Below are positions 21,264 to 61,751 of a stretch of DNA of 64,000 nucleotides, in pieces (position 1 is the first letter of the stretch; each line of letters opens with the position of its first letter). The position numbers and the translations under genes are program-made. The notes below the pieces were generated by a model. The model did not search any database. It was not told the DNA's origin and saw only the letters and a list, made by a program, of their open reading frames with translations. The DNA comes from a virus. Its lineage: Duplodnaviria; Heunggongvirae; Uroviricota; Caudoviricetes. The stretch lies in IMG/VR virus record IMGVR_UViG_2925891887_000001; one strand, written 5' to 3'.

Positions 21264-21323
21264 ACAACTTCAATCGGGGCTGGAGCTAAACCAGCCCCTG
21301 CTTAAAAGTATAAGGATATATTT

Positions 21324-21578
21324 ATGAGCTATGGTGCACAGGTTTGGTCGCCATCAAGACAGGAGATGGTCAATGCGTTGGCCCCTGTTTATTACCTCGA
21401 TTATTTTACTCCCTCTGGTTCAGGAAGTAGAACATATGAGGTTGAGGCGGGATTGGGAATCGACTATTACATAATGGACGTAACCAATGGAAAGTACACA
21501 AGTCTTACGGTTTCTGGAAATACCATTTCGTGGTCTGGAGCTAGTGGTAATTTAAACATATTGGTTTTTCAAAAATAA
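21324..21578 (+). CDS. hypothetical protein (tail fibre-associated)
   Basis: 84-aa ORF after the tail fibre gene; lower GC than flanking genes. Confidence 0.5.
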   Translation: MSYGAQVWSPSRQEMVNALAPVYYLDYFTPSGSGSRTYEVEAGLGIDYYIMDVTNGKYTSLTVSGNTISWSGASGNLNILVFQK

Positions 21579-22186
21579 TGTACGGAAGCAAGATATATCG
21601 ATCTGACGGGAAGGTCTGGATGTCTCCTTCTTTGTCTCCTATCGTTTTTCAGAGAAAGCAGGTTGTTTCTTTGTCCGGCGGGACAGAGTTTAACACCAAA
21701 ATATCTCCAGATCGTTCACCGATTATTTTTGTTGCCTATTCGAAAGCTGTTTCATTAATAGCCAACAGAATAGTGCGTAACAACCAGGTGATTTACAGTT
21801 TCGGAGGTCAGGGTAGCGACTCTAGTGCCACGATATACGTATTTTCGAAAGGTATAGCCAAAAAAGAAACTTGGGGCATGAGTTTTTTCAATGCACAAGG
21901 GGAGGAAATCTATAATACGGCAAATATCCCACTTTCATTTACCTTTCTTAATAATACGGAGTGGAACAGCTCTGGAGGGCATGTTTTTGATTACCCTCCA
22001 GCGATAATCCCAACATATGCGAATGTGTTCGCTGTTCCAGTACCGGGCGGAGCCATGACAATGGTTTATGGATATGCGGCATATGGAAATACTGTTAGCT
22101 CGATATTCGTAAACCAACTTAATGGCGGCCATAGTTTTAGCGTAAATGGCAGAGTACCGGTAATAAATAGAAATCTGTATAACTGA
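21578..22186 (+). CDS. hypothetical protein (tail fibre-associated)
   Basis: 202-aa ORF with start/stop overlap to the upstream gene. Confidence 0.5.
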   Translation: MYGSKIYRSDGKVWMSPSLSPIVFQRKQVVSLSGGTEFNTKISPDRSPIIFVAYSKAVSLIANRIVRNNQVIYSFGGQGSDSSATIYVFSKGIAKKETWGMSFFNAQGEEIYNTANIPLSFTFLNNTEWNSSGGHVFDYPPAIIPTYANVFAVPVPGGAMTMVYGYAAYGNTVSSIFVNQLNGGHSFSVNGRVPVINRNLYN

Positions 22187-22193
22187 TGAGTAG

Positions 22194-22427
22194 ATGATGA
22201 AAAGATTATTTCTAACAATAGCTGTTGTTCTCTCTCTTACTGGCTGCCAGAAATTGCCGACACCTATATGTTACGGTGAGGCTATCATTGGTGGACAGGA
22301 GACAGTCATACCCATATATGCTGTTAAAAAAGTGAACGACTATACCTTATACAAAGCGGGTAGCATCTATAACTGGCGATGGGTAGGAGTAGGTGCTTTC
22401 TCATCAGTCCGTTGCAATGCTGAATGA
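22194..22427 (+). CDS. small lipoprotein, candidate Cor-like superinfection exclusion protein
   Basis: Signal peptide with lipobox LTGC; 77 aa; located between tail fibre genes and the lysis cassette. Confidence 0.45.
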   Translation: MMKRLFLTIAVVLSLTGCQKLPTPICYGEAIIGGQETVIPIYAVKKVNDYTLYKAGSIYNWRWVGVGAFSSVRCNAE

Positions 22428-22508
22428 TAGGTAAGTACACACCTACAACAAAAGGGTGAAATGTGATATAAATCCGCCATCCCGATTTGACTTTTCATGG
22501 AGGAAAAC

Positions 22509-22832
22509 ATGTCGAACGAGATGGCGGGCGTTACAACAGAGCAAGTTGAGCGTATTGCCGCGATCGTTGCTCGGGAGGTTGTTGGCAAATTAGGTAAAGA
22601 GCTACGTGAAGAAATTGGCCAGGAGGTCAACGATCAGCTGAAAACCTACTTTGGTGATATGACCCCGGCGCAACATAGTATTCAACACTCCAACCTGGAC
22701 AAACTCCTTAACCGGTTAGATTCCATCTCAAGTGGGTTCTTTGGCGGCATTGTTTCTAAAATAACGTCGTTCATTATTACCGCACTGCTTTTGGGGTTAG
22801 CCGCGTATGGCGTAAAAAATGGACTGCAATAA
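22509..22832 (+). CDS. membrane protein, holin candidate
   Basis: GGAGG RBS; single C-terminal hydrophobic helix; first gene of the putative lysis cassette. Confidence 0.4.
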   Translation: MSNEMAGVTTEQVERIAAIVAREVVGKLGKELREEIGQEVNDQLKTYFGDMTPAQHSIQHSNLDKLLNRLDSISSGFFGGIVSKITSFIITALLLGLAAYGVKNGLQ

Positions 22833-30591: not shown

Positions 30592-31845
30592 GTGGAGAAC
30601 ACCTCCACGCTTGATTCATTGGTGAAACAACTTTTCTTTTGCCAAACCACAAAAGAAAAACACATGAGCCTTTATGTTATATCAACATTTAGGTTGGTCA
30701 CAATATTGCCTGTTAAAAGTGGAATTATCGTGAGCGAGCTGAAAGAGCTAATTGCCGAATTAGATTTTGAACAATGGTTGGATACTGAAGGTATCGTTTA
30801 TCGACGTGGAGGCGTGAGTGCTCGCGGTCGTGAAGTGAATATCAAAGAGTGTCCGGTATGCGGCAGCTCCAACTGGAAGGTATATTTCAATCTGACCAGT
30901 GGCGTCGGCAAATGCTTCGCTGGTGATCATCCCGAAGAGATTCAGTTCAATAAGCTGGTCTTCCTCAAGCACTACAGCGGTAAATCACGACGACAGTTCG
31001 AGGAATATGTGCAGAACGCTCTTCTTTCCCAGGGGTGGACACCAAAGAAAGAAGAGCTAGTGCTTGCAAGCACAGTCGAGTTAGAGGGGCCAGTTGCACT
31101 CCCTCGTCATTACGAGCTTCCTATAGATGGCCGTCTTCCAGACTATCTGGTTGAACGAAACATATCACCTGAAATGGCAAAGTATTTTGACCTACGATAC
31201 TGCGTCGAAGGCAAGCACGCTTATGTAGATCCGTATACAGATCAGGTAAAAGGGCAGATATTCGATATGCGAATACTGATACCGGTTTACGATCTGGATG
31301 GGGTAATGAAGACATTTCAGGGACGAGACATTACCGGTACAGCAGAACGCCGCTACCTCTTTCCTATGCAGCTTCCAGCTTCAGGTAAATTTCTCTACAA
31401 CGGCCATAATGCAGTCGGCAAACAGACTGTAGTTGTCTGTGAGGGTTCGTTCGATGTTATGGGGGTCAAACGAGCTATTTTCGACGAAGAAACATTACGT
31501 GATTACGTGGAGCCAATAGGAACGTTCGGGATGCATCTATCTGGCAACACCACTCAGGATGCAGAAGATCAGTTGGGCGCGTTCCTGACGCTCAAGGCGC
31601 GTGGATTACGTAATGTGATCATGATGTGGGATAGTGAAAAGCAAGCTATACGAAACACGATGGCCGCAGCCAGGCGACTGACCAGTATTGGTCTTAATGT
31701 CAAAGTTGCGTGTTTGGGCGAGGAAGGACTCGACCCCGGCGATGCGACACCGGGGCAGATTATCAAAGCCTACTATTGCGCAAAACCTTATTCACGACAG
31801 CTTGAACTTTTAAGCAAGGTAAAAGGTATAGCAGCATTAGTTTGA
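30592..31845 (+). CDS. DNA primase (zinc ribbon plus TOPRIM)
   Basis: CPVCGSSNW...CFAGDH zinc-binding motif and TOPRIM-like acidic motifs (VVVCEGSFD); start uncertain. Confidence 0.65.
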   Translation: MENTSTLDSLVKQLFFCQTTKEKHMSLYVISTFRLVTILPVKSGIIVSELKELIAELDFEQWLDTEGIVYRRGGVSARGREVNIKECPVCGSSNWKVYFNLTSGVGKCFAGDHPEEIQFNKLVFLKHYSGKSRRQFEEYVQNALLSQGWTPKKEELVLASTVELEGPVALPRHYELPIDGRLPDYLVERNISPEMAKYFDLRYCVEGKHAYVDPYTDQVKGQIFDMRILIPVYDLDGVMKTFQGRDITGTAERRYLFPMQLPASGKFLYNGHNAVGKQTVVVCEGSFDVMGVKRAIFDEETLRDYVEPIGTFGMHLSGNTTQDAEDQLGAFLTLKARGLRNVIMMWDSEKQAIRNTMAAARRLTSIGLNVKVACLGEEGLDPGDATPGQIIKAYYCAKPYSRQLELLSKVKGIAALV

Positions 31846-33090
31846 ACCAGTATTAGTCACGTAAACATTGACCGAAAATGATTTAACTTCTGTGTTGAAG
31901 TTGTCAGTCATTACCGCGAGGTAGGCATTCTTGGTATCTCTGAATTGCTTCAGGATGATTTGAACGTTATCGGTGCAAACAAACGAGGTAGCCAGATTGC
32001 CTCCTTTCTCTGAAAAATCCTTCAAGAAGGTGCAGTCAACTTTGCCATCATTAGCGGTGAAGACGGCATCATCACCCTGCCAGGTAAATGTTGCGTTAAC
32101 GCCTTTATCAATGGATTTAGCAATAAGTCGCTGAGTGTCAGATTTGGCATTTTGCTGTTTTGAAGGCGAACGGAACGTACCTTTTGCTTTCATTGCAGCA
32201 ACGTTTTCGCAGCCCGTTTCGTCATCTTTATCGCAAGCAGCTTGGTAAAGCTCTGATGCTTTCCGATAATCCTGTTTGACGCCCAATCCCTTAAGATACA
32301 TGTAACCAAGGTGGTTCATGGCATAATCATTTCCTAAGCTGATTGCTTGTTCTAAAAGACTTCTGGCCTTCGAATAGTCTTTTTTTATACCTTCTCCATG
32401 CATCAACTTGTATCCAAGCGCGCTCATGGCGTTATTATTTCCTAATTCAGCTGCTTTCAAGTACCACTTAATTGCCTCTTTATTGTTGCGCTTAACAGCA
32501 ACACCATCGTCGTACATAGAGCCTAGCCCATACATTCCTGCGGCATTTCCACTATCCGCAGCCTTTTTATAAGATTTAAATGCTTTCTTGTAATCTTTCG
32601 GAACTCCCTTACCGTATTGATATAAATATCCCATATAGGCAAGCGAAGGTATATCACCAGCTTCTACTGCTAGTTTGTGATATTTTAAAGCAGCTTCTGG
32701 GTCCTCCTTTCCAGTCCAACCTCGTTCGTATATAACGGCAAGATTATGGTAAGCACTGCCGTTGCGAGCATTTCCTGCTAGTTTGTAGTACTCAACGGCC
32801 TTATTTAGATCTTTATCTACTCCCTTCCCAATTGTGTACATAACCCCAAGCGCATAATATGCTACTTTATCTCCCTTTTCTGCGGCGAGATCGATCCACT
32901 TCTTGGCCTCTACTAAATCCTCATCAAAGCCATTAGCCCCATCCAAATAATTTGTCCCTAACGCACTTTGTGCTGTGGTATCTCCTGCGGTGGCGGCGTC
33001 GATCAGCGTTTGTTTATTATCTGCGTTAACGTATCCAGGGCCGAAAAGCAAAGCTAATGCCAGCAACGATGAAGGTTTTATGAGTTTCAT
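31837..33090 (-). CDS. secreted Sel1-like repeat (TPR-like) protein
   Basis: Signal peptide then multiple about 36-aa repeats of Sel1 type (A..YYKLAA..G...A...LG.MY..G.GV..D); only large minus-strand gene in the replication block. Confidence 0.7.
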   Translation of the reverse strand: MKLIKPSSLLALALLFGPGYVNADNKQTLIDAATAGDTTAQSALGTNYLDGANGFDEDLVEAKKWIDLAAEKGDKVAYYALGVMYTIGKGVDKDLNKAVEYYKLAGNARNGSAYHNLAVIYERGWTGKEDPEAALKYHKLAVEAGDIPSLAYMGYLYQYGKGVPKDYKKAFKSYKKAADSGNAAGMYGLGSMYDDGVAVKRNNKEAIKWYLKAAELGNNNAMSALGYKLMHGEGIKKDYSKARSLLEQAISLGNDYAMNHLGYMYLKGLGVKQDYRKASELYQAACDKDDETGCENVAAMKAKGTFRSPSKQQNAKSDTQRLIAKSIDKGVNATFTWQGDDAVFTANDGKVDCTFLKDFSEKGGNLATSFVCTDNVQIILKQFRDTKNAYLAVMTDNFNTEVKSFSVNVYVTNTGSN

Positions 33091-33317
33091 ATTTTATGTT
33101 CTGTTGATATAGGATGAACAGTTTAGACGCGGCAAGCGTCAAGTGTGCGAAAAGGGTACTTAAATTTAGTTAATCTGTCAGCTTTGATAATTTATGAACT
33201 GTAAAGTTGATGTGATATTAATCACTGATGGAAATAATGAGCTATGGAATTATTGTGACACGGCTCGTGTTTTGGTTAACTAATACCTACGATAAATATA
33301 AATAAAGGGAAGTCAAA

Positions 33318-33731
33318 ATGAGCAAAAAGAAGTTGATTTTAACAGGTGCTTTATTGTCGTTGTTTGCATTAGTTGGGTGTAAGCCTACAGACGAGAAGGC
33401 TATTACTCTGGGCCAACAGGCAATTGCGGATGATATGAAAGATCCCACGTCGGTGATGTTTAGGAAAGATAAGTTTGTCAGGACTGATCATGATGATGGG
33501 AGTGTGACAGGCTTTGTGTGTGGTGAATTAAACGCCAAAAATGGCTTTGGTGCATACGTGGGCTATCACTCATATGTTGTTGAACTCGAAATGAAGCCAA
33601 AGGGCATGTTTTCAAAAGGGGTGGTATACAAAATCCTATCGAAGTCGTTGGCACCTAATGATCCTCATGATTTACAGCGTTATAAGCAGGTCTACAGAAA
33701 GATGTGCAACAGTGAGGCTGTAGCTCATTAA
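33318..33731 (+). CDS. lipoprotein, function unknown
   Basis: Signal peptide with lipobox LVGC; AGGGA RBS. Confidence 0.55.
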   Translation: MSKKKLILTGALLSLFALVGCKPTDEKAITLGQQAIADDMKDPTSVMFRKDKFVRTDHDDGSVTGFVCGELNAKNGFGAYVGYHSYVVELEMKPKGMFSKGVVYKILSKSLAPNDPHDLQRYKQVYRKMCNSEAVAH

Positions 33732-33856
33732 AGGTGAATGCTGGGCTGAGGATATGCCCGGCATCTTAGTATAAAGAACTATTGCACCTAAAATGATAAG
33801 TAGATACATACTTAAGTTTTTGTAAGAATACTTTCATCCGTTAGCTAGGAGTTGGT

Positions 33857-38332: not shown

Positions 38333-38652
38333 ACACAACAGGTAAGAGCATTGGGCGAATCGGCGATACTGACCCACAAGGCCGTAAATCGATAGAGTCA
38401 GACCAGTGCTCTTACCGTTGTGAGGAAGTGCAGCTCTTTGAAGCAACCAGAAGATAAGCATCTGGCTTCACAACACAACGATAATATCATTACGGTTAAT
38501 CGTCGTTCATGTGCACAATGACTGGTCGAAAGGTAGTGATCTTACCGTTGTGATGAATGCACAGGCTGATGTGCCGCAACTACAGTAGTGCGCGCTTTGC
38601 GGGGCTTGCTACAACCCTGTGTCGGAGTTCAGCACCGACCATCACAATAGCT

Positions 38653-38739
38653 GGAGAGTAGGGAGCATGGTGCTCAAGCGGTCTTGAAAACCGTCCCATT
38701 GTGCAAACGATGATGGTTCGATTCCATTACTCTCCGCCA
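38653..38739 (+). tRNA. tRNA-Ser (anticodon TGA), long variable arm
   Basis: Acceptor GGAGAGT/ACTCTCC, anticodon loop CTTGAAA, T-loop GGTTCGATTCC, encoded CCA. Confidence 0.7.
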
Positions 38740-38894
38740 GACACAGCGTTGAGCGGTTTGGCCTTTTAATCAACTCGATTAAGACTCCGCTAACATAAAC
38801 CAGACCGCTCAACGCTGTGATAGATAATTACGGCAGACGTTCTTAACCATAGCTTGCTAACATCCTAGCAACACTTTTTTCAGCGCAAAATTCA

Positions 38895-38918
38895 AAGGGG
38901 CTTCGGCCCCTTTTTTGT
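38895..38918 (+). terminator. Rho-independent terminator closing the tRNA cluster
   Basis: AAAGGGGC-TTCG-GCCCC hairpin followed by TTTTTTGTT. Confidence 0.75.
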
Positions 38919-38931
38919 TGAACAGTGCAAT

Positions 38932-40194
38932 TTACTTTGCATAGTCGCCCAATTTTAATATTTCGCGCTTATATTCATTAACCATGCTACTGGATTCAGT
39001 ATAAATTCGATTTAAAAGATTATCGTTATCTTTATTTTCATTTATCTTAATTAGTGCTAATTTATATTCATAGTCATCAAATGCCACAATTAAATGGTGG
39101 CCTGGGATTATATCTTCGTCACTCTTAAAGTATATATCTTCAAGTATGTAATCTAGTTGATTAGATTTTCTTTTCTCGATGTAATCTTCAGCCATAGCTA
39201 TTACATCATTCCTGTCATTTAACCTGTTTTTTTCGGAAGGCACATCTTCGTAATGTTGCACGATTGAACAACCAATAAGGCGTGGGATGTAAACGTCAAA
39301 ATGAGTAACTCTATCATTCGCGGTTTTAAGTAGTTCCTCAAAGTAGTTTCTTACATGTAAAGGCAACTTCTCAAAGTAATCATTAATTATAGGAGAACAA
39401 GGAGTTTTATAATTCATAAGAACCGACGGTACGAGCTTTGGGTGTCGAAACATCCAGTCCCTTTTAACGTCCGATGGAACATAATAACTTTTAATGATAT
39501 TATCAAAATAATTTATCATTCGAGATTTGAATATTTTGTTGAATCTAAGGTTTATGAATGTATCCAGATAAGGCATATTTGAATAAGCATCATCAAAAAA
39601 TATTTCATCATTGAAAAAATCATATTTATTCAATAAACAACACAGTTTTTCCGAATTAATATGTTCACAATAATCGATTTTTAATCCAAAGATAGCAATG
39701 ATCAACTTCATCTGAGGTGGGATTTTAAAAATTAATTGTGACACATACGCTCTTTTTTCCTTGAGACATTCCCCATCAATATAAAATGAACCATCCACAT
39801 ACTCAAATATATTAATAATATGCTTCACATACTGTATTACCTCATGCTGTCTTACCAATGGATAATATAGTCTATGTAACTCATCGCTGTTTAAATTAAT
39901 TTTGTGTTTATCGATAATTTGTTTTGCAAGAAGACATAACTCATCATGTTGATTTAATAAGGAATCAAACCATTGTTTAAATGCACTCTTTCGCATTTCG
40001 AACAATGATTCAGTTGTTAATTGAAGGGCTGAAAAAGCTGCTTTTGCACTTTTTCTCGCTTCGTAGGCATTCCATGCTGTTGCTATAAAAGCAAATGCTG
40101 TAGCCAATGTTCCAACAGTTTGACCATTTAAAACAACCCAATCCCAAAAAATGACGGTGAGCAGTAGTATAATAATGAAAATTAAAAAAGGCAT
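38932..40194 (-). CDS. AT-rich membrane-anchored protein of unknown function (cargo gene)
   Basis: 420-aa ORF, two N-terminal hydrophobic helices, strongly AT-rich, adjacent to tRNAs and an integrase. Confidence 0.55.
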   Translation of the reverse strand: MPFLIFIIILLLTVIFWDWVVLNGQTVGTLATAFAFIATAWNAYEARKSAKAAFSALQLTTESLFEMRKSAFKQWFDSLLNQHDELCLLAKQIIDKHKINLNSDELHRLYYPLVRQHEVIQYVKHIINIFEYVDGSFYIDGECLKEKRAYVSQLIFKIPPQMKLIIAIFGLKIDYCEHINSEKLCCLLNKYDFFNDEIFFDDAYSNMPYLDTFINLRFNKIFKSRMINYFDNIIKSYYVPSDVKRDWMFRHPKLVPSVLMNYKTPCSPIINDYFEKLPLHVRNYFEELLKTANDRVTHFDVYIPRLIGCSIVQHYEDVPSEKNRLNDRNDVIAMAEDYIEKRKSNQLDYILEDIYFKSDEDIIPGHHLIVAFDDYEYKLALIKINENKDNDNLLNRIYTESSSMVNEYKREILKLGDYAK

Positions 40195-40368
40195 GTATGT
40201 ATTTCACTCTACTAACTATAAAATATTAGGCTAATGTTAACCAAACAATGCCTTAATTAATAGATTGATCGAGGCTTTAATAGCTTTATAATGCAGACTT
40301 TAAAGATAAGTATGCACATACCTATCTTCTTTGTAAGTAAAGTTGCATATCAATTCTATGAGGTAACA

Positions 40369-40614
40369 ATGACGATCACTATCTACGGACGAGATAACTG
40401 CTCATACTGCAAACGTGCGGTCGAGCTGGCGAAGCAACTAAAGGGACATGGCTACGGTGATTATGAGTACATCGACATCACCACTGCCGGTATCGACAAG
40501 GAAAAACTAAGTGAAATTGTTGGTAAACCGGTAGAGACTATCCCCCAAGTGCTGATCGATGGCCAACCGATTGGCGGATACACAGAACTGGCTGCATACG
40601 TCAGCACCCTCTGA
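40369..40614 (+). CDS. glutaredoxin-like protein (NrdH/NrdC-like, CxxC)
   Basis: MTITIYGRDNCSYCKRA... with GAGGT RBS; about 81 aa; followed by a terminator. Confidence 0.7.
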   Translation: MTITIYGRDNCSYCKRAVELAKQLKGHGYGDYEYIDITTAGIDKEKLSEIVGKPVETIPQVLIDGQPIGGYTELAAYVSTL

Positions 40615-40632
40615 TTTTAACGGCTCACAGGA
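40611..40632 (+). terminator. Rho-independent terminator
   Basis: CGGCTC-ACAG-GAGCCG hairpin followed by TTTTTA. Confidence 0.65.
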
Positions 40633-40824
40633 GCCGTTTTTATTCCCACCAAACTCACTCCCGTTTCCCTTAAAATTCAAAAAACAACGTCAAAATGATT
40701 CCATACCTACTATGTATGGAATCATTACTGAAAATGAGTTACTTTTACTCTTGATCCTATAAGAATCTATGCCTAATATACTGTTTACTTATACAGTAAA
40801 TCGGCGTAACTCGGTGATTGTCAT

Positions 40825-42870: not shown

Positions 42871-44979
42871 ATGTCTAAAAAACGTTCCATCAAAGAGGTT
42901 CAGGACTTCCGTGACAGTGTAAAACGAGTAGTCGCTCTCCTTTCAGGTAAAAACATCCCTGTTGCAGAACGAGGGGACGACGCTTATGTACGCTATAACG
43001 ATGATGGAGAGCCAATTCTCGTAAACATCCCATCAATCCCGGATAACGCAACACCGGCATTGATGAATGCTGTGCGCGGATTTCTCGATCATGAGGTTGC
43101 TCACATTTTGTTTACCGATATTCGTGTGTCCAACAAAATGAGAGAAAAAGGACGCGTTCCTTCCTGGTCGCTATGGAATGCCTTAGAAGACGTGTTCATC
43201 GAGCGAAAAATGGGTCAGGTCTTTAACGGAACAAGACGTAATCTGATGGCAACTCAGCGCCTTATAATCGAAAAAGTCTTTAAACCAAAGGCTTCAGAGG
43301 CTATTGCTTATTGTGGCAAAGATCAGCGCGCGCTTTTTCTAAACTTCTTTCTCTGTCCGGTTGTAAGAGCCTGGGATGGCCAAGCACCGTTCGTAGATTT
43401 CATGGATGAACATTGGCCTGTCATTGAGAAACCAATTTCATTATTAAAAGAACATGGTATCGATGTGGCCGTGCGTAACATGTCTTGCACCGAGGATTGT
43501 GTAAAGGTGGCTGCGACCATAGCTAAGATCCTCAAAGACACTGAAAGTGAAAGCAAAGGTAAGGAGTCAGCTCCGGGAAAAACTTCCGATCCTTCAGACG
43601 CTGACCAGACGGATGCCTCTGGAGAAAACAATGAAGACAACGAAGATCATGAGACTCCCTCAGTGTTAGATAATCACAAATCTATCAAATCAGAATCACA
43701 TAGTAAGTACAAACATGATAATAACAACAGTGATGATTCAGATAATTCTGAATCATCAGAAACAATATTCGATGATACAGAAAATGATAAAGAGGTATCA
43801 GATTCTGATGCTTCTGATAACGCGGCGTCAGAATCATTAACCGCTGACCACGAAAAAAGAAAAACGACAGAAGACGGCTCTTCAGATATCCCAACTCCGT
43901 CAAAAATGAGTCTGGAAGAGGCTTTAGAGGAGCTGGATAGCATAGAAGATGAAGTCGGAGGCATGACAGAAGATGCTCTATCCGAAACGATTAAAAGCGA
44001 GTTAACAGAAAGCTCGAAAAGCGAATACAGGCCATACAATCGCTCATACGACTTCATCGGCTCGATTGATCAGGCAGAAGCCCATATCAAACGGCTTATT
44101 AAAACATTCTCCGATATTGATTTGGGAGGATATCCAATCAGCCGCTATCGCATCGTTCCTGAAGGCAACCAGCTCTTCGACAAATATATTGAAAAGCATC
44201 TTTCGTCAGGTGTTTCGTCGACGCTGGCAAAAGACCTGGAGCGAGCAATAGCAAGCAGAAACAGAGTTCAGTTTATACCGGGCCAGCGTCGGGGGCGCAT
44301 TCATGGTTCTAGTATCTACAGATTAGCAATGAATGATGCTCGCGTGTTTCGTAAAAAAGAAGAATCTAAAGCCGTTAACGCCTGTGTTCAACAAGTGATT
44401 GATTTATCAGGTTCAATGAGTGGTATAACGATTAAACTGGCTCTTGCAAGTGCATATACCATCGCCGATGCCCTTGATCGAATAAATGTTCCCAACATTA
44501 TCACTGGCTTCACTACATTTGGTAGTCATATGGCGGCAGGAGAACTTAAGGCTGTCAAGTATGAGTTCTCTCGCTTTGAATCTTTAATGCTACCTATCAT
44601 CAAAAATTGGAATGAAAAGGTAAATTCTCGCGAAGTTCGCTCACGTATGGGGTGCGTAGGCTACACATTCCCACTTCTTAATAACGTGGATGGTGAAAGC
44701 ATAGCCAGCCTTGCATCGTTATTTTCCGGTCGCATGGAGGACAGGAAGATCATGCTTGTTCTGAGTGATGGCGCGCCGTGGGCTGTTGGGAGAGGTTTTG
44801 ACGCTCATTTGCGTTCAGTTGCGAAGCAAATTGAAACGCAGACTGATATTGATTTGATGGCAATTGGCATCATGACTGACGCACCGGAGAGATTTTACTC
44901 AAATCATGCCCTGGTAACGAGCGTTGATAGTCTTGGTTCATCTGTAGTTACTGAACTATCTCGTATCATTTTAAAGTGA
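42871..44979 (+). CDS. von Willebrand factor A (vWA) domain protein with acidic Asp/Glu/Ser-rich linker (CobT-like)
   Basis: MIDAS motif DLSGSMSG in the C-terminal part; long acidic low-complexity segment; paired with the downstream AAA+ gene. Confidence 0.65.
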   Translation: MSKKRSIKEVQDFRDSVKRVVALLSGKNIPVAERGDDAYVRYNDDGEPILVNIPSIPDNATPALMNAVRGFLDHEVAHILFTDIRVSNKMREKGRVPSWSLWNALEDVFIERKMGQVFNGTRRNLMATQRLIIEKVFKPKASEAIAYCGKDQRALFLNFFLCPVVRAWDGQAPFVDFMDEHWPVIEKPISLLKEHGIDVAVRNMSCTEDCVKVAATIAKILKDTESESKGKESAPGKTSDPSDADQTDASGENNEDNEDHETPSVLDNHKSIKSESHSKYKHDNNNSDDSDNSESSETIFDDTENDKEVSDSDASDNAASESLTADHEKRKTTEDGSSDIPTPSKMSLEEALEELDSIEDEVGGMTEDALSETIKSELTESSKSEYRPYNRSYDFIGSIDQAEAHIKRLIKTFSDIDLGGYPISRYRIVPEGNQLFDKYIEKHLSSGVSSTLAKDLERAIASRNRVQFIPGQRRGRIHGSSIYRLAMNDARVFRKKEESKAVNACVQQVIDLSGSMSGITIKLALASAYTIADALDRINVPNIITGFTTFGSHMAAGELKAVKYEFSRFESLMLPIIKNWNEKVNSREVRSRMGCVGYTFPLLNNVDGESIASLASLFSGRMEDRKIMLVLSDGAPWAVGRGFDAHLRSVAKQIETQTDIDLMAIGIMTDAPERFYSNHALVTSVDSLGSSVVTELSRIILK

Positions 44980-45074
44980 ACAAAACAGCCTTAACGATAA
45001 GTAACCACTTACGATATATAATGATATATTTATATAAGAAGTTGAACGCTCATTAGAGAACAAAGGAAAAACGC

Positions 45075-46310
45075 ATGACGACTACTGCACTGCAAAATGA
45101 AAAAAATCCTTCTGATTACCTTGTTTGCAAGTGGTGCGGCAAATCATTTCACTATTTTAAGTCCCATGTAGCCAATGGTAATTGCGAGGGCATTCCTGAG
45201 TCAGTAAAAGATGCCGATCCTGACACCGTACTGAAAATGTACACAACGCAGTTTCCAGATGAACCAACGCTATCGAAAAAGGCACTTGATGCAATTCAAG
45301 CTAAACGTGCCGAGCAAAAAAGCGAAATGGCCAAATCTTCTGGCTTGACCAGTAGCCCTGGCTACACAGGCACAGTTGAGTACAAGACAGATCTGGTCGC
45401 AGCTCACGAACTGCTAAACGTAACAGTGGAAGAACTCGGAACAAAACGTGGGACGCCGCTCATGGTTAGCGTCAACGTCAATACGCCGTATCCAGAGTTC
45501 GTTCCCGAAGTGAAGAAAGGCTACGTATATGGCGACTTCGAACTGATCAAAGATATTTTCATGATGCTTGAACTTGGCATACCTGGCTATTTGTGGGGTC
45601 ATGCAGGAACAGGCAAATCGTCATTGCCTACACAGCTATGTGCTTTGCTCAATCGTCCGTTGATCCGTGCCCAACATACAGCATCAATGGAAGAGGCACA
45701 TGTTACGGGGCAAATTCTGGCGCGTGATGGCTCTACGTATTTCGAACCTGGCTTGCTTGCGCTCGCAATGAAGCATGGCTGGGTTTACCTCGCGGATGAA
45801 TACGACTTTGCGTTTCCACAAATTCTTGGCGTGTATCAGCCAGTGCTGGAAGGTGAAGCGTTGGTCATCAAAGAGGCAACTCCAGAATGGCGTCGCATTA
45901 CTCCGCATGAACGGTTTGCTTTCATTGGCACTGGCAACACGAACGGATCTGGTGATGAAACCGGCTTGTACCAGGGTACAAACATCCAGAACGCCGCGAA
46001 CTTTTCGCGTTTTGGCATCGTTTCGAATGTGAAATACATGAGCAAAGACGCAGAGATCAACATGTTGACAAATGCAGGCATCGTGGATGAATACGCTGAA
46101 AAGATGGTTAAGTTTGCCGGTATCGTTCGCGATGGATACGAAGAACACCTCATTAGTCAGCCAATTGGCCCTCGTGAACTTTTGTTGTCGGCCAAGATTG
46201 GAATGATGCGAGGCGACTTTGTGACAGGTATTGAGCGTTCTTTCATTAACAAACTCCCTTCAGCTTCTGCACAAGCGGCTCGTGAAGTTGTTCAAAAAAT
46301 ATTTGGTTAA
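45075..46310 (+). CDS. MoxR/CobS-like AAA+ ATPase
   Basis: Walker A GHAGTGKSSL, Walker B-like VYLADEYD; 411 aa. Confidence 0.65.
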   Translation: MTTTALQNEKNPSDYLVCKWCGKSFHYFKSHVANGNCEGIPESVKDADPDTVLKMYTTQFPDEPTLSKKALDAIQAKRAEQKSEMAKSSGLTSSPGYTGTVEYKTDLVAAHELLNVTVEELGTKRGTPLMVSVNVNTPYPEFVPEVKKGYVYGDFELIKDIFMMLELGIPGYLWGHAGTGKSSLPTQLCALLNRPLIRAQHTASMEEAHVTGQILARDGSTYFEPGLLALAMKHGWVYLADEYDFAFPQILGVYQPVLEGEALVIKEATPEWRRITPHERFAFIGTGNTNGSGDETGLYQGTNIQNAANFSRFGIVSNVKYMSKDAEINMLTNAGIVDEYAEKMVKFAGIVRDGYEEHLISQPIGPRELLLSAKIGMMRGDFVTGIERSFINKLPSASAQAAREVVQKIFG

Positions 46311-57818: not shown

Positions 57819-58094
57819 ATGAGAGTTTTAGTTCGAATCGTTACCAGCACTGTCTATGACGTGTTTCCGCTTTTTATGGTCAAAGTCGATGGCCTTAACG
57901 ATGAAGAAACTGACGCGCTGATCCAGCGTACTCTTGTTGAATATACAGGTCATGACGCTGATTCAGTGATGGTTGATGACGATGGTGTTTGTTGGCATAA
58001 CGGCAACTGTTGGTACGTAGAAGAGACTCAACAAATCAGTAATGAAGATGCTGAACATCTTGAGCGTATTTTAAGCATCAGCACTTTTGAGTGA
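57819..58094 (+). CDS. hypothetical protein
   Basis: 91-aa acidic ORF with the conserved AAAGGAAAAACAC leader. Confidence 0.5.
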   Translation: MRVLVRIVTSTVYDVFPLFMVKVDGLNDEETDALIQRTLVEYTGHDADSVMVDDDGVCWHNGNCWYVEETQQISNEDAEHLERILSISTFE

Positions 58095-58309
58095 GTTTAC
58101 AGTAAAGTTTATATAAGTTAGTATCTACCTATCATGAAGATTTTTATTGAATACTTGTTACTCATCGTTTCAATAGCTTTTGTCATCGACTGCATTTTCA
58201 CTGGTGTCATTCGTAAAGTCTTTTCCCCGGTGCACGACGTAGTCATAAACGCTTTGGCTATCGTGCTCGTATTTAATTCAGCATTTGATGTAATCAAAGA
58301 GGTGGCAGC

Positions 58310-58645
58310 ATGAAGACCATCCCATTCGCGCTGTTGTTTCTTTCTTCGATCGTTGTGGCCGACACCACTGTTTATCAGTGTGAAATGTCTGTAGCCGACG
58401 TTAAGAATGGCGCTCTTACCGACGTCATAAAAGCACCATATGGAGCGATGGTCGTAGACAGCGGCGACCAGTTCTATGTTGTGCGTGACGATCGAGTGTT
58501 GTCATCCCCATATCTCACAAATCGTAATGGCAAATTAACCGGCGTCGGAGAAGACCACTTCGTATACAACAAATACAAGGGCTTCTATGGCGTTCACGCT
58601 TCTCAGCAAAGCTACCTTTTCGATGACTGCAAGGAGGTTGGGTAA
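58310..58645 (+). CDS. secreted protein with signal peptide, function unknown
   Basis: 111 aa, N-terminal signal peptide (MKTIPFALLFLSSIVVA). Confidence 0.5.
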   Translation: MKTIPFALLFLSSIVVADTTVYQCEMSVADVKNGALTDVIKAPYGAMVVDSGDQFYVVRDDRVLSSPYLTNRNGKLTGVGEDHFVYNKYKGFYGVHASQQSYLFDDCKEVG

Positions 58646-58857
58646 TGGCATTAACACTGGCAGGTCTGGAAATCGAGAAAACAAGCGGCTACTGGCGTGC
58701 TAAGGGTTTCAAGCAGCCTGGCATTCTTGAGCGTCTGGAACGTGAAGATGGGTATATCGTCCACCAGCGGCGTGAATGGCGTATGTACGATCCAGAAACA
58801 GGAAAACTGACTACAAAAGCCGGAACACTTTGGGGTCTGTTAAAGAAAATACACTAA
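58645..58857 (+). CDS. hypothetical small protein
   Basis: 70-aa ORF with ATGA overlap; followed by hairpin 58867..58888. Confidence 0.45.
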   Translation: MALTLAGLEIEKTSGYWRAKGFKQPGILERLEREDGYIVHQRREWRMYDPETGKLTTKAGTLWGLLKKIH

Positions 58858-58904
58858 ATGCAAACTGACTGCGGCACGTTCCGCAGTCATATTTCATAGT
58901 CGTC

Positions 58905-59437
58905 ACCGCTGACAGCATACACAATCAACTACCGCTGATAGCATATCGAGAGTCTATCTCACCGCTCACAGCATACTTTACTCGATTCTTTACCGCTGAC
59001 AGCATACTTAAGAAATTGCATGAATAATGTGTCCCGGTATGGGTATAACCAGAACAAAATTACCGCTGGCAGCATACGAATGTCTGACATATACCATTAA
59101 TTACCGCTGATAGCATATCCAAACAAAAATTCCTCAATAACACACCGCTGACAGCATACGTTCTATCAGGGAGTAGCAGGCAATAAATGCCTTTCACTAC
59201 AAGCAACCAGCGCAATAGCAATAGAATGTTAGTGAGCGCAAACCTATATGGAATGCACTCTTCGAGGTTAGTAACCACTGGGGAGGTATGACAGAGCATT
59301 GAGTGGTGATAGATGATTTACCGCTCACAGCATACGTTCATCTCACTATACCGCTGGTAGCATATCTTTAACCGTTCACAGCAAACTTTTCAGAAAAATA
59401 GCCGCTGATAGCATACATTTCACCGCTGACAGCATAT
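58905..59437 (+). repeat. iteron array downstream of rep: about 12 direct copies of a 16-bp unit (consensus ACCGCTGACAGCATAC), incA-like
   Basis: Copies read at 58905, 58931, 58961, 58992, 59062, 59103, 59144, 59320, 59350, 59371 (degenerate), 59401, 59422, all in the same orientation. Confidence 0.85.
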
Positions 59438-60531
59438 CAAAGCAGTTTGAGACTATTGGAAAGGATCTCAATCATCTTGATATTTTCAGGCGTCAAATTC
59501 TGCGAAAGTTCGGTTATCTTGTTGATAATGTTCTGTTTGGCATCAATTTCCCCAGCTTTCTCATCTGGTTTTTTGGGTTCGATGTCTTCAGGTTTTGGCG
59601 GTGCGACTTTGAGTTTTGGATTGCGGCTGTGAATCTGGATATAGATCGACCGCCCACGCTTAATCTCGCTGTATTCGAGATAGCCCAAATCTTGGAGAGC
59701 TTTTAAGCCGTTACGTATAGTCTGATTCTGCGAGCTGACATTCCTGCTACTCAAATTGAGTCGCGCACGCAATCGAGCAAGCGATACCGGCGCAGGCTTG
59801 GTTGGAAGACTTTCGATGAAGGTGTACAGAGCCTGTGCTGTTTCTTTGCGTGGTAGCTTATTGATAACCTTTAACTGCAAAAGAACCTTATGGTCAAAGC
59901 GATATAGTTCGGCCAGCTTCGGTTCTGCATAGAACACCACCGTATCTTTCTGCTCGTTGTAGTCCACGCTATTGATGAGGTGCACCATCAGAAGCGAGAT
60001 CTTGTTAGAGCCGTCGACGTTCTTTTCTTCATACGTTCTCTGGAAAGACAGAGTTGTACGCATGATCTTCAAAAGACTGTTTGTAAGCCGGTCGCGGAGT
60101 GTTTTGCGGATCTGTGACGATGGATAGCCACAAAACTTAGCAAATTTCGTGATGCTTAACTCGACACGACCGTTAGGTTCGCCGTATTCTGCCAGCGAAC
60201 GCACAACGCCCACCCACGTTTTGAAATCATGATCCATGTCGAGACGAGGACCGGTTATCTTGATATCGGAATAGCCTTCAGAACGGGCTACTTCGAGCTG
60301 GACAAGCTCCTTTGAAGCATCGATCTCATTTGGCTTGTTACGTTTACTGTATTTTGTTCCCTTAAGCGTGGGGACGAACAACCCCAGTCGCATCAACGCA
60401 ATTGGTTGGACTGTATTGTTGCTATTAGGGACAAGTTCCCCTGTGTACAATTCAAGGGAACCTTCTTCAAAGTTGTCGATGTTATCTTCTACTTCTTTGT
60501 TATTTTTACCTTTTTTATTTTTTGTGGACAT
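59437..60531 (-). CDS. replication initiator (iteron-binding Rep protein) candidate
   Basis: 364-aa ORF flanked on both sides by the same 16-bp iterons; basic N-terminus; start MSTKNKKG at the DnaA-box-like TGTGGACA pair; assignment from replicon architecture, not from a protein motif. Confidence 0.6.
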   Translation of the reverse strand: MSTKNKKGKNNKEVEDNIDNFEEGSLELYTGELVPNSNNTVQPIALMRLGLFVPTLKGTKYSKRNKPNEIDASKELVQLEVARSEGYSDIKITGPRLDMDHDFKTWVGVVRSLAEYGEPNGRVELSITKFAKFCGYPSSQIRKTLRDRLTNSLLKIMRTTLSFQRTYEEKNVDGSNKISLLMVHLINSVDYNEQKDTVVFYAEPKLAELYRFDHKVLLQLKVINKLPRKETAQALYTFIESLPTKPAPVSLARLRARLNLSSRNVSSQNQTIRNGLKALQDLGYLEYSEIKRGRSIYIQIHSRNPKLKVAPPKPEDIEPKKPDEKAGEIDAKQNIINKITELSQNLTPENIKMIEILSNSLKLL

Positions 60532-60551
60532 GTGGACACCTTTGTCATTCA

Positions 60552-60653
60552 ACCGCTGACAGCATACTTGATTTGCCGCTGACAGAATACCAAAAACAGT
60601 TGGCAGCATACGGTGAACCGCTGACAGACTATCAATTACCGCTGACAGCATAC
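60552..60653 (+). repeat. iteron array upstream of rep (origin-proximal, about 5 copies at roughly 21-bp spacing)
   Basis: Copies at 60552, 60575, 60596 (degenerate), 60617, 60638 of the same 16-bp unit. Confidence 0.8.
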
Positions 60654-60693
60654 ATGAACATGACTTCAGACCAGTCGTGGCGCGGCTTACAGC

Positions 60694-60766
60694 GATCGGG
60701 GATCTTATTTGATCTATATAAGGATCTATCTATGGATCTCTTTATTAGGATCTATCCTGTGGATAT
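60694..60766. promoter_or_regulatory. origin-associated AT-rich region with six GATC sites and a DnaA-box-like 9-mer (TGTGGATAT)
   Basis: GATC at 60694, 60701, 60711, 60723, 60735, 60749 within GGATCT-type repeats; TGTGGATAT at 60758-60766. Confidence 0.6.
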
Positions 60767-60852
60767 GTGAATAATTAAAACAGGCATTTACTACCTTCGG
60801 CGCACCTGGTGGGTTATCGTTGCCTCGGCTAACAATCACAGAAAAATGACAT

Positions 60853-61497
60853 ATGGATCTAAAACGCACGCGCTGGGTTCGTCGTCTTGAAGACGGCTCC
60901 TACACTATCGAATCAAATTCCAACCTGAATAAGCAGAAGTTGCTTTGTGACATCTGCGGTATAGCGGCGAAGTGCCCGATCTACGAAACCAGAATTAAAC
61001 TTGATAAGGCTGGTGTGAATTTTCATTTAAACAGTTGCATCAGGTACGTTCCATTACTCGCATTTCGTAAACCGATCATCGGATTGGATGCTCCCTACTT
61101 CAACACACTCCGTTCAGGTGTGACGTGGCGAGATCGTTTATCACCAGACAAGCTGATTTGCCTCGTATCCGCAGACACAGGGAAAATCATCCGTTTTGGG
61201 AAAGTAGACAAGGTTTACTCAGGCCCAGTAGACGAAATGTTGCGGAAACACAGCCGGTTTAATCATCTCTGTATGGGTGGTGAGAAAATCGAGAAGGTAG
61301 AAGAAGTGATCCGCAAATCCTACGGACACTTTCTGACCAAAGATAGCCTGCTCACCGCAATCTACATCAGACATGTAAAACGTGAGTTCGACCTCGAATA
61401 CCACAGCGAAGAAGAGCTTAACCTTGTTGACCCACGTCCAAAAGCTGGCGTCATAAGCATAAACGCAGCGCGTAAAAAGCCCACTGACGCGCTGTAA
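60853..61497 (+). CDS. hypothetical protein
   Basis: 214-aa ORF downstream of the origin region. Confidence 0.5.
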   Translation: MDLKRTRWVRRLEDGSYTIESNSNLNKQKLLCDICGIAAKCPIYETRIKLDKAGVNFHLNSCIRYVPLLAFRKPIIGLDAPYFNTLRSGVTWRDRLSPDKLICLVSADTGKIIRFGKVDKVYSGPVDEMLRKHSRFNHLCMGGEKIEKVEEVIRKSYGHFLTKDSLLTAIYIRHVKREFDLEYHSEEELNLVDPRPKAGVISINAARKKPTDAL

Positions 61498-61751
61498 CCC
61501 TCCAGATCGTATATTGGCGTAGATAGAATCTACGCCCCCTCAAAATAGCTCTCATAGCGTTCTACAGTGATCCTGTCTTATTTTTAGTCATACAGACAAG
61601 CAAAGTTGCGCCACAACAAATAGGTATATACTTACTTATAAATTTTGTATATTAAGGCGCTCGTTTCATTCCTAACATACCGTTATGCATAGTTGTTTAC
61701 CTTCTCATTGCTCTTAGAATTTGTATCAAAATAATCACAAAGGAAAAACAC

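Follow-up and report, generated by a model that had tools for sequence, protein, structure and literature searches.

The region at positions 58866-60774 of the window (the whole stretch of DNA that was analysed, 64,000 nucleotides) is very probably the replicon that maintains an SSU5-like E. coli phage-plasmid (pECOH89/p09EL50 type) in its plasmid state, and belongs by descent to the P1 RepA/RepFIB family. In its full extent, the replicon comprises 17 iterons, an origin core, and a 364-aa Rep. PlasmidFinder types the locus as IncFIB(H89-PhagePlasmid)—the name used in typing practice, with the SSU5/pHCM2/pLF82 type kept separate—and it is thus already catalogued, real but ordinary. The type follows from the initiator: Rep is identical to the p09EL50 Rep at 364 of 364 residues, matching its C-terminal 364 aa, and the RepA of pECOH89 (HG530657) is, according to a published report, 100% identical to that of p09EL50. 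The first-pass annotation, made from the sequence alone, had held that neither the iteron nor Rep was recognisable from any known replicon; given this identity and the approximately 50% identity of Rep to IncFIB RepA, that claim was wrong. The MOB-suite cluster for the pECOH89/p09EL50 replicon is rep_cluster_488. SSU5-group phage-plasmids are reported to be mostly IncFIB, and for IncFIB(H89-PhagePlasmid) itself the searchable papers were typing reports and genome announcements, none of which mapped its iterons or its origin core.

Anatomy of the replicon

The features of the replicon, in order of position, are as follows.

58866..58889, no strand assigned: bidirectional terminator-like hairpin, an inverted repeat with a 9-bp stem and 6 G-C pairs, called on both strands
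58905..59159, minus strand: distal downstream (incA-like) block of 7 iterons, spacing 26-70 bp
59160..59319, no strand assigned: spacer of 160 bp splitting the downstream array, with no iteron and no Rfam match
59320..59437, minus strand: proximal downstream (incA-like) block of 5 iterons, with a 1-nt overlap between the final copy and the rep stop codon
59437..60531, minus strand: rep, encoding a 364-aa initiator of the P1 RepA/RepFIB family, predicted to bind iterons (Pfam, PHROG, homology)
60523..60538, minus strand: tandem TGTCCACA TGTCCACA (rep strand) across the rep start codon, read from the sequence
60552..60653, minus strand: five origin (incC-like) iterons, starting at 60552, 60575, 60596, 60617, and 60638 (spacing 23, 21, 21, 21)
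60671..60686, minus strand: G+C-rich block flanked by the GATC repeats and the first iteron, with the rep-strand sequence GCCGCGCCACGACTGG
60694..60755, minus strand: A+T-rich block with six GATC, five in (A/T/G)AGATC(C/A) heptamer-like repeats and one in CGATCG
60758..60774, minus strand: tandem DnaA-box-like 9-mers at the outer origin edge, ATATCCACA at 60758-60766 and TTATTCACA at 60766-60774

The iteron, ACCGCTGACAGCATAC, matches the window 18 times when up to 3 mismatches are allowed, against 0.46 matches expected, and none of 100 shuffles reaches 18. All but one of these matches (17/18) fall within the locus, every one of them on the plus strand. The approximate counts in the first-pass annotation, 12 copies downstream of rep and 5 upstream, proved exact, and the two-helical-turn phasing proposed for the upstream copies is likewise seen, at 21-23 bp. 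Iterons of the distal block start at 58905, 58931, 58961, 58992, 59062, 59103, and 59144, and those of the proximal block at 59320, 59350, 59371, 59401, and 59422. Beyond the distal block, the hairpin separates the replicon from a convergent upstream gene (58645-58857). One further iteron-like site, inverted and lying inside rep (60183-60198, 12/16 matches), was considered as an additional Rep site and set aside because chance alone would give approximately 0.2 such matches over the locus.

The iterons are selectively conserved. Four E. coli relatives with 98-99% identity retain all 17 iterons and every spacing, and in these relatives substitutions affect 5 of 1088 iteron positions vs 49 of 1596 other intergenic positions (Fisher p = 4e-7), a rate approximately 7-fold below that of the neighbouring intergenic DNA. 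The upstream set is constant at five, including in PhiR41_1 and Klebsiella pJN2-26, whereas the downstream number varies between 12 here, 11 in Cronobacter, 9 in PhiR41_1, and 8 in Klebsiella. PhiR41_1 lacks the three outermost downstream iterons owing to an 87-bp iteron-to-iteron deletion, and these three distal copies are therefore dispensable. The internal spacer differs too: the 160-bp spacer is 56% identical to its counterpart in the Cronobacter plasmid, with two conserved islands, and pJN2-26 carries an unrelated 71-bp spacer in its place. No Rfam family matched 58000-61500 at E <= 1, and hence neither spacer nor origin contains a known RNA.

At the outer edge of the origin, a DnaA-box-like 9-mer had been noted beyond the upstream iterons. 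It is present, as TGTGGATAT at 60758-60766, which reads ATATCCACA on the rep strand and differs from TTATCCACA at one position; a second box, TTATTCACA at 60766-60774, also with one mismatch to TTATCCACA, abuts the first in tandem. These two boxes align column-for-column with the tandem P1 oriR boxes, for which the GenBank record gives a DnaA binding site. The window contains 12 DnaA boxes at one mismatch, no excess over the 15.4 expected, and the assignment thus depends only on positional homology to P1.

The adjoining stretch is A+T-rich, as had been described (67% A+T at 60690-60780 vs 54% for the window), and its six GATC sites do lie within 59 bp, starting at 60694, 60701, 60711, 60723, 60735, and 60749. 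The window averages 4.0 GATC per kb, and this is its sole spot with more than two in 56 bp. A repeat family of 12-14 bp spans the block. The sites stand in register with P1 Dam sites 1-5; P1 has five GATC to the six here, with AGGTCC where the locus keeps a GATC. By analogy with P1, the block would form the Dam-methylated opening region.

Comparison with P1, for which the features were those annotated in NC_005856, gives 95 identical positions of 141 (67%) between P1 oriR and the 146-bp origin core, with the tandem DnaA boxes, GATC heptamers, GCCGCGCCACG block, and first iteron all in register. When the origins are aligned, GCCGCGCCACG is conserved between the locus, P1, and the plasmids pJN2-26 (Klebsiella) and pCsaC757b (Cronobacter). 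Identity of the core is 79% to both Klebsiella and Cronobacter, 69% to SSU5, and 60% and 51% to two IncFIB plasmids.

Two TGTGGACA copies had been placed over the rep start codon, and they are found at 60523-60530 and 60531-60538, spanning the ATG at 60529-60531. Read on the rep strand as tandem TGTCCACA, they are possibly inner DnaA boxes; the corresponding sequence in pJN2-26 is GTATCCACATG, and in P1 CTATCCACA lies 19 bp ahead of the repA start. A scan for consensus sigma-70 promoters returned none on the rep strand, and promoter-like sites overall (4) did not exceed the number in shuffles (4.2 expected). The best candidate for the rep promoter, TTGGTA-18-AAGTAT at 60593..60564, has the same offset as P1 PrepA; it is weak, below the scan threshold, and poorly conserved in the Klebsiella relative. 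The rep promoter would be expected within or next to the two iterons nearest rep.

The initiator and its relatives

The open reading frame at 59437..60531 on the minus strand encodes 364 aa, as claimed. A longer reading of 404 aa, from 60651, is also open; the 404-aa Rep model of PGAP runs through the iterons and is an annotation error. A profile HMM search had been suggested as a check on the proposed replication role, and Pfam PF01051 (Rep3_N) matches residues 118-239 with 37.5 bits against a cut-off of 22.4, so that a WH1 domain is present. Rep also matches PHROG 775 (E 5e-133). In tblastn comparisons, it shares 43.5% identity with P1/P7 RepA over residues 32-309 (E 2e-64) and 47.9% with SSU5 RepA; identity to IncFIB RepA, represented by at least 5000 plasmid records, extends over residues 24-309, and the Klebsiella SSU5-like and Cronobacter relatives reach 85-89% (85-88% for the Klebsiella elements by tblastn). 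An alignment of seven Rep proteins, P1 RepA included, contains 91 invariant columns. Relative to P1 RepA (286 aa), Rep carries additional N- and C-terminal segments, namely a basic N-terminus of approximately 30 aa and a C-terminal tail of 55 aa. The alignment with P1 RepA is continuous up to residue 309, which would place a WH2 region in Rep, giving the tandem WH1-WH2 fold of solved iteron initiators such as RepE, pi, and pPS10 RepA. Searches of PDB with the Rep sequence and with the 7-sequence profile gave no match, nor did a search of NCBIfam with Rep and its neighbours, and a single-sequence AlphaFold2 model of Rep had a mean pLDDT of 40, too low for a fold search.

The P1-style incC-repA-incA layout proposed for this DNA is thus borne out, with a homologous RepA and an alignable origin core, and on these alignments the resemblance to P1 is one of homology, beyond a shared layout. 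The order of elements is shared throughout: tandem DnaA boxes, GATC heptamers, G+C-rich block, five iterons, DnaA-like box, rep, and downstream array. The five incC iterons of P1 are spaced 21, 21, 21, 22, against 21, 21, 21, 23 at the same place here, and copy 9 of P1 incA reaches to 61771, where the repA CDS range begins, a junction like that of the locus. P1 differs in other respects, however. Its iteron is 19 bp (GATGTGTGCTGGAGGGAAA), unrelated in detail to the 16-bp core here, and its incA comprises nine iterons, six of them inverted, in an unsplit array, whereas the 12 here are unidirectional and lie in two blocks around the 160-bp spacer. Because the array is unidirectional and split, control details may differ from those of P1. 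The P1 par operon follows incA, whereas the par operon here is not adjacent, and P1 is a myovirus, whereas the host element here is an SSU5-like siphovirus.

Among plasmid replicons, RepFIB RepA also possesses a C-terminal tail past the end of P1 RepA, and its GATC-heptamer origin core can be aligned with that of the locus; the iterons differ, and RepFIB carriers are conjugative or mobilizable plasmids rather than phages. Much closer are the IncpKPHS1 replicons of Klebsiella (pKPHS1, pJN2-26) and the replicon of Cronobacter pCsaC757b, which have the same 16-bp iteron. A published account of the Klebsiella relatives gave only four downstream iterons. In the pJN2-26 record, repeats are labelled attL/attR; their reading as att sites was rejected, as they belong to a 13-copy iteron family there. 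SSU5, pHCM2, and pLF82 (phage Cyrano) share the backbone family and the gene neighbourhood of the element, but not the initiator-iteron specificity of their replicon type: the SSU5 iteron, CTATCCACTGTAGTGA, occurs in mixed orientations and differs from the one here. Upstream of its repA, SSU5 also contains another origin-like module, now decayed. The same 16-mer is thus found where Rep identity is 85-89%, and different iterons in SSU5 (48%) and P1 (44%), a pattern across relatives that suggests covariation of the initiator and its binding site.

The phage-plasmid and its distribution

Identity of the locus is 99.7% to p09EL50 and reaches 99.9% with other plasmids in PLSDB. The SSU5-like p09EL50 backbone (approximately 110 kb) runs collinear with the window at 72-99% identity; compared with pECOH89/p09EL50, the replicon shows no difference of substance, and the backbone is a mosaic variant. 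Backbone genes include those for terminase, portal, capsid, tail, DnaE, and NrdAB. The element's replication genes encode DnaE, a DnaB-like helicase, a primase-like/toprim protein, a ligase, and RNase H, and ParB-family and ParA-like genes sit elsewhere on the element, with no par genes beside the replicon.

The locus occurs at 95% identity or above in approximately 116-118 of 5,426 complete E. coli genomes, where its placements number 183 on plasmids and 0 on chromosomes. This plasmid-only location, in an SSU5-like phage-plasmid, agrees with the earlier suggestion that the phage exists as a plasmid. PLSDB holds 205 plasmids with the locus, 198 of them non-mobilizable, and in p09EL50 it is the single typed replicon. 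PhiR41_1, deposited as a phage of E. coli MG1655, is 99% identical across the locus. Strain F6326-C1 contains this replicon together with a classical IncFIB plasmid, and published strains likewise hold IncFIB(AP001918) plus IncFIB(H89-PhagePlasmid) plasmids; such coexistence in one strain implies that IncFIB(H89-PhagePlasmid) is compatible with classical IncFIB.

Proposed mode of replication and alternatives

By analogy with P1, Rep monomers would bind the five iterons at 60552-60653, phased at 21 bp, with host DnaA occupying the flanking boxes. Firing would require a fully Dam-methylated GATC region, and the hemimethylation that follows would delay re-initiation. Rep bound to the promoter-proximal iterons would repress its own gene, possibly by promoter occlusion. 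The twelve downstream iterons (58905-59437) would be unnecessary for initiation and, under the handcuffing model, would limit copy number through Rep titration and pairing with the origin iterons. Low copy number, handcuffing, autoregulation, and dependence on DnaA and Dam are all carried over from P1 in this scheme. As a member of the P1 RepA/RepFIB family, the replicon would also be expected to require DnaK/DnaJ/GrpE. Since DnaE, a DnaB-like helicase, and primase-like proteins are all encoded by the element itself, it may not depend on the host replisome.

A new replicon type that came to resemble P1 in layout only, through convergence, is a reading already refuted and retains practically no credence. 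The iterons do differ from those of P1 and SSU5, NCBIfam offered no matching model and PDB no sequence relative, and one paper on the Klebsiella relatives had assigned RepA no known domain. Such a reading is nevertheless overturned by the RepA homology (E 2e-64 to P1 RepA), the origin alignment with P1, and the identity of Rep to that of p09EL50, to which the pECOH89 RepA is in turn reported to be identical; moreover, the type has a name, and its group is reported mostly as IncFIB. The set of replication genes on the element could instead suggest that the replicon is a non-functional relic, the element being maintained and copied by a phage replisome of its own that starts at a different origin. 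This is highly improbable: the rep reading frame is undamaged, with identical or almost identical copies in more than 100 plasmids, the iterons accumulate far fewer substitutions than their surroundings, conservation of the origin core extends from P1 to IncFIB, and no other replicon is typed on p09EL50.

It is also very unlikely that the 12-copy downstream array has a role other than copy control, for example as a centromere for partition, as a second origin, or in blocking or regulating transcription of the convergent genes. Its departures from P1 incA (unidirectional, longer at 12 vs 9 copies, and split by a partly conserved spacer) and the absence of the adjacent par genes found after P1 incA would fit such a role. 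The repeats are, however, the same 16-mer as the origin iterons, and the array abuts the rep stop codon just as P1 incA does. The ParB-family and ParA-like genes lie elsewhere, and copy number varies between 8 and 12 among relatives, with three copies missing from PhiR41_1; an array whose copy number is freely variable suits a dose-type regulator over a structured centromere. As for the plasmid-state replicon itself, adaptation of this branch to phage-plasmid life beyond what P1 displays is unlikely, and could involve the Rep tail, the element's own methyltransferase, or a site in the array. The tail (residues approximately 310-364, absent from P1 RepA) is conserved and helical, and may link initiation with the DnaB-like helicase and DnaE that the element encodes rather than with host DnaB/DnaC. 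An N6-adenine methyltransferase encoded by the element outside the window may methylate the six origin GATCs, rendering plasmid replication independent of host Dam, and the split array of 12 unidirectional iterons, whose spacer is partly conserved, may contain an extra regulatory site.

The value of these results is practical rather than conceptual, and the understanding of iteron replicons is unchanged. The true extent of the replicon is now fixed for a type of phage-plasmid through which blaCTX-M-15 spreads in E. coli, and errors are exposed in existing annotation: the 404-aa Rep of PGAP, the attL/attR labels on iterons, and the four-iteron count in Klebsiella. Across P1, SSU5-like elements, and IncFIB plasmids, the half of the origin that serves host factors—DnaA boxes, GATC heptamers, and G+C-rich block—is conserved, while the initiator-iteron pair diversifies, and such replicons can therefore coexist in one strain.

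Iterons and origin core

The locus at 58905-60770 is, on the strength of sequence comparison, a homologue of the P1 replicon. The first-pass annotation had taken it for the P1-style iteron replicon that maintains a phage as a plasmid, and this reading is supported: Rep, the 364-aa product of the minus-strand gene rep, and the origin core are both homologous to those of P1. Its further remark that the iterons and Rep were not recognised from any known replicon does not hold, since this replicon has been deposited hundreds of times, is annotated as a plasmid initiator, and is named in typing schemes. The searchable literature yielded no map of the iterons and origin core for this replicon, the nearest account—of Klebsiella relatives—giving four downstream iterons only and describing RepA as lacking a known domain. 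This is an annotation gap and not a new kind of system.

The iterons are copies of the 16-mer ACCGCTGACAGCATAC, for which the 64-kb window contains 18 matches at up to three mismatches, against 0.46 expected from dinucleotide-preserving shuffles; 17 of the 18 fall within 58905-60653, every one on the + strand. On the rep strand, their conserved core reads (G/A)TATGCTGTCAGCGGT, with a weakly A-rich 3′ flank. The first-pass estimate of about 12 copies downstream and about five upstream of rep agrees with the count.

Features of the replicon (window coordinates)
58310-58857 and 60853-61497 (+): replicon-flanking genes
58905, 58931, 58961, 58992, 59062, 59103, 59144, 59320, 59350, 59371, 59401, 59422 (starts, +): 12 downstream iterons
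59160-59319: 160-bp spacer without iterons, splitting the downstream array
59437-60531 (-): rep
60523-60538: two TGTGGACA copies, straddling the rep ATG at 60529-60531 as first noted
60552, 60575, 60596, 60617, 60638 (starts, +): five upstream iterons, spaced by 23, 21, 21, and 21 bp
60694-60749 (starts): six GATC sites in the origin core

Two islands of the 160-bp spacer, CCCCAGTGGTYACTAACC and GGTTTGCRCTCACTAAC, are conserved with Cronobacter plasmid pCsaC757b; Klebsiella pJN2-26 has an unrelated 71-bp spacer in its place, and both islands are absent. The spacer has no match in Rfam and contains a small hairpin, AGGCAATAAATGCCT, at 59178-59192. Within the rep coding region (codons RSLAEYGE), an inverted iteron-like sequence with 12/16 matches at 60183-60198 is probably fortuitous, because chance alone would give the locus about 0.2 matches of this type. 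The attR and attL labels of the pJN2-26 record (MZ779062, 1378-1397 and 2648-2667), placed on two 20-bp repeats flanking rep, were rejected: these repeats belong to the iteron family, and the labelling is a misannotation.

All 17 iterons and every spacing are kept in four E. coli relatives (98-99% identity), in which substitutions affect 5 of 1,088 iteron positions and 49 of 1,596 other intergenic positions (Fisher p = 4e-7), a contrast that counts as a trend and not as a formal test, the four being non-independent lineages. Upstream iterons number five in every relative examined, the third in Cronobacter being too degenerate for the 3-mismatch scan. Downstream, the window has 12, PhiR41_1 has 9, Cronobacter 11, and Klebsiella 8; in PhiR41_1 (PV340561, whose deposited record describes an E. 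coli MG1655 phage), an 87-bp deletion lies between two perfect iterons (equivalent to window 58905-58991), and the three outermost iterons are gone. In P1, incC is the origin set and incA a dispensable, dose-dependent control locus. By analogy, constant upstream and variable downstream numbers are the pattern expected of such a pair.

The six GATC sites that had been noted in an AT-rich stretch are present at a density unique in the window: elsewhere, there are never more than two per 56 bp, and the cluster region is 67% A+T against 54% overall. The DnaA-box-like TGTGGATAT was likewise found, reading ATATCCACA on the rep strand, and another box with one mismatch, TTATTCACA, comes immediately after it. 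At this stringency, the window shows no excess of DnaA boxes (12, with 15.4 expected), and such matches thus mean little by themselves.

Rep and its start codon

The profile search suggested in the first pass places the rep product in the Pfam family Rep3_N, above the gathering score. Rep3_N is the WH1 domain of iteron initiators. Rep also matches PHROG 775 (E 5e-133) and is identical to the p09EL50 Rep.

Relatives of Rep (translated searches), with origin-core identity and iteron
Phage records CMS-2020a and PhiR41_1: Rep 99.7-100%
Cronobacter plasmid pCsaC757b: Rep 89%; core 79%
Klebsiella SSU5-like phage-plasmids: Rep 85-88%; core 79% (pJN2-26)
SSU5 RepA: Rep 47.9% (E 4e-78); core 69%; iteron CTATCCACTGTAGTGA
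P1 and P7 RepA: Rep 43.5% over residues 32-309 (E 2e-64); core 67% and iteron GATGTGTGCTGGAGGGAAA (P1)
Classical IncFIB RepA: Rep about 50%, in at least 5000 plasmid records; core 60% (E. coli IncFIB) and 51% (Klebsiella IncFIB)
Iteron shared by the window and its Klebsiella and Cronobacter relatives (85-89% Rep identity): GTATGCTGTCAGCGGT

An alignment of seven proteins, P1 RepA among them, has 91 invariant columns. The conserved ...HSRNPKL motif forms the C-terminus of P1 RepA, whereas Rep extends about 55 residues past it, as do the RepFIB and SSU5 RepA proteins. This C-terminal tail (residues about 310-364; window 59437-59602, minus strand), which P1 RepA lacks, carries a motif, IDAKQN..NKI.ELSQNLTPENIK.IEIL.NSLKLL, that is conserved throughout the E. 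coli-Klebsiella-Cronobacter clade; conservation is faint in SSU5 and IncFIB RepA. Two helices are predicted for the tail by a single-sequence model that is poor overall and exceeds a pLDDT of 60 only there.

RefSeq/PGAP models (WP_001348683.1 and relatives) give Rep 404 aa, starting at 60651 and translated across the five upstream iterons. The 364-aa start at 60531 is favoured on sequence grounds, since homology to every outgroup (P1, SSU5, and IncFIB RepA) begins near residue 30 of the shorter form, a Shine-Dalgarno sequence, AAAGGTG, lies 6 nt before this ATG, and SSU5 has no such upstream extension. The first-pass annotation and the PhiR41_1 record both give the 364-aa form.

An SSU5-like phage-plasmid

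Identity of the locus to plasmid p09EL50 (E. coli O104:H4) is 99.7%, and to other PLSDB plasmids it reaches 99.9%. Across PLSDB, 205 plasmids match the locus, 198 of them non-mobilizable; for 120 of the 205, one match alone spans at least 80% of the query. Of 5,426 complete E. coli genomes, 118 carry the locus, and all 183 of its occurrences are on plasmids, none being chromosomal. According to the pECOH89 genome announcement, the RepA of pECOH89 is identical to the p09EL50 protein and shares 48% identity with the pLF82 one; the announcement groups these plasmids with pHCM2 and SSU5. Current typing practice designates plasmids of the pECOH89/p09EL50 kind IncFIB(H89-PhagePlasmid), and SSU5-group phage-plasmids are predominantly IncFIB in the literature.

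The window and p09EL50 align collinearly, with identities of 72-99%, and the p09EL50-type backbone codes for terminase, portal, capsid, tail, DnaE, a DnaB-like helicase, ligase, and NrdAB. Compared with p09EL50, the window is mosaic, with aligned blocks broken by segments lacking a megablast match (approximately 17452-22578, 31791-33796, and 38354-40692); identity is just 72% across the tail-fibre region, at about 15.2-17.5 kb. The replicon-flanking genes encode products of 214 aa (PHROG 2105), 111 aa (PHROG 2077), and 70 aa (PHROG 804), all functionally uncharacterised PHROGs, and their synteny is kept in SSU5, Klebsiella, and Cronobacter relatives. No support was found for the labels 'ASCH RNA-binding' (214 aa) and 'Cre-associated' (70 aa) of some records.

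Comparison with P1 and proposed mechanism

The GenBank annotation of P1 runs from a DnaA site through five Dam sites, oriR, five incC iterons (carrying PrepA), and repA to nine incA iterons, which end at the repA stop. The window reproduces this set and order of parts, at almost equal spacing. Its 146-bp origin core matches P1 oriR at 95 of 141 aligned positions, and the tandem DnaA boxes, each heptamer, the CGATCG/TGATCG site, the GCCGCGCCACG block, and the first iteron occupy the same columns. The part of the origin that host factors presumably read is thus conserved family-wide. Beside this conserved core, the iterons are lineage-specific, initiator and iteron having co-diverged between Rep lineages. 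Coexistence with classical IncFIB plasmids, seen in strain F6326-C1 and published for EC48956 and EC47258, fits this co-divergence.

Several features differ. Six of the nine P1 incA iterons are inverted, whereas all 12 downstream iterons here are co-oriented with the origin set, in an array split by the spacer. P1 has AGGTCC where the window keeps its sixth GATC, its RepA lacks the additional termini of Rep, and no par operon adjoins the replicon here, unlike in P1; relatives of this element have adenine methyltransferase and replisome genes of their own, lying outside the window or elsewhere within it. These differences leave a slim chance of lineage-specific variations. SSU5 (JQ965645, about 760-1440) carries two tandem origin-like modules upstream of repA that have no equivalent in the window: the outer has six GATC sites and iteron-like repeats, and the inner is a decayed copy whose heptamer GATCs are now GAACC/GACCC, which looks like an ancient origin duplication.

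Anatomy, homology of Rep and the origin core, iteron conservation, and plasmid-only location are directly established; the mechanism is modelled on P1 and on iteron plasmids generally (general review). Rep monomers would bind the five phased iterons, and DnaA the outer tandem boxes and possibly also the TGTCCACA pair at the start codon; jointly, they would open the A+T-rich GATC-heptamer block. The 12 downstream iterons would titrate Rep and pair with the origin iterons (handcuffing), giving low copy number. Rep may also repress its own promoter: this step is the weakest, because the promoter scan gave no consensus promoter on the rep strand, and the candidate at the P1-equivalent offset (TTGGTA-18-AAGTAT, 60593..60564) is a poor match and not well conserved.

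The origin would require Dam methylation, and the hemimethylated origin would be transiently sequestered. p09EL50 (NC_018651) encodes a 197-aa phage N6-adenine methyltransferase at 31739-32332 (record 44738-45331), called dam in the pECOH89 paper; tblastn finds no copy of it within the 64-kb window. Should GATC be the target of this enzyme, the six GATC sites of the origin could be serviced by it without reliance on host Dam.
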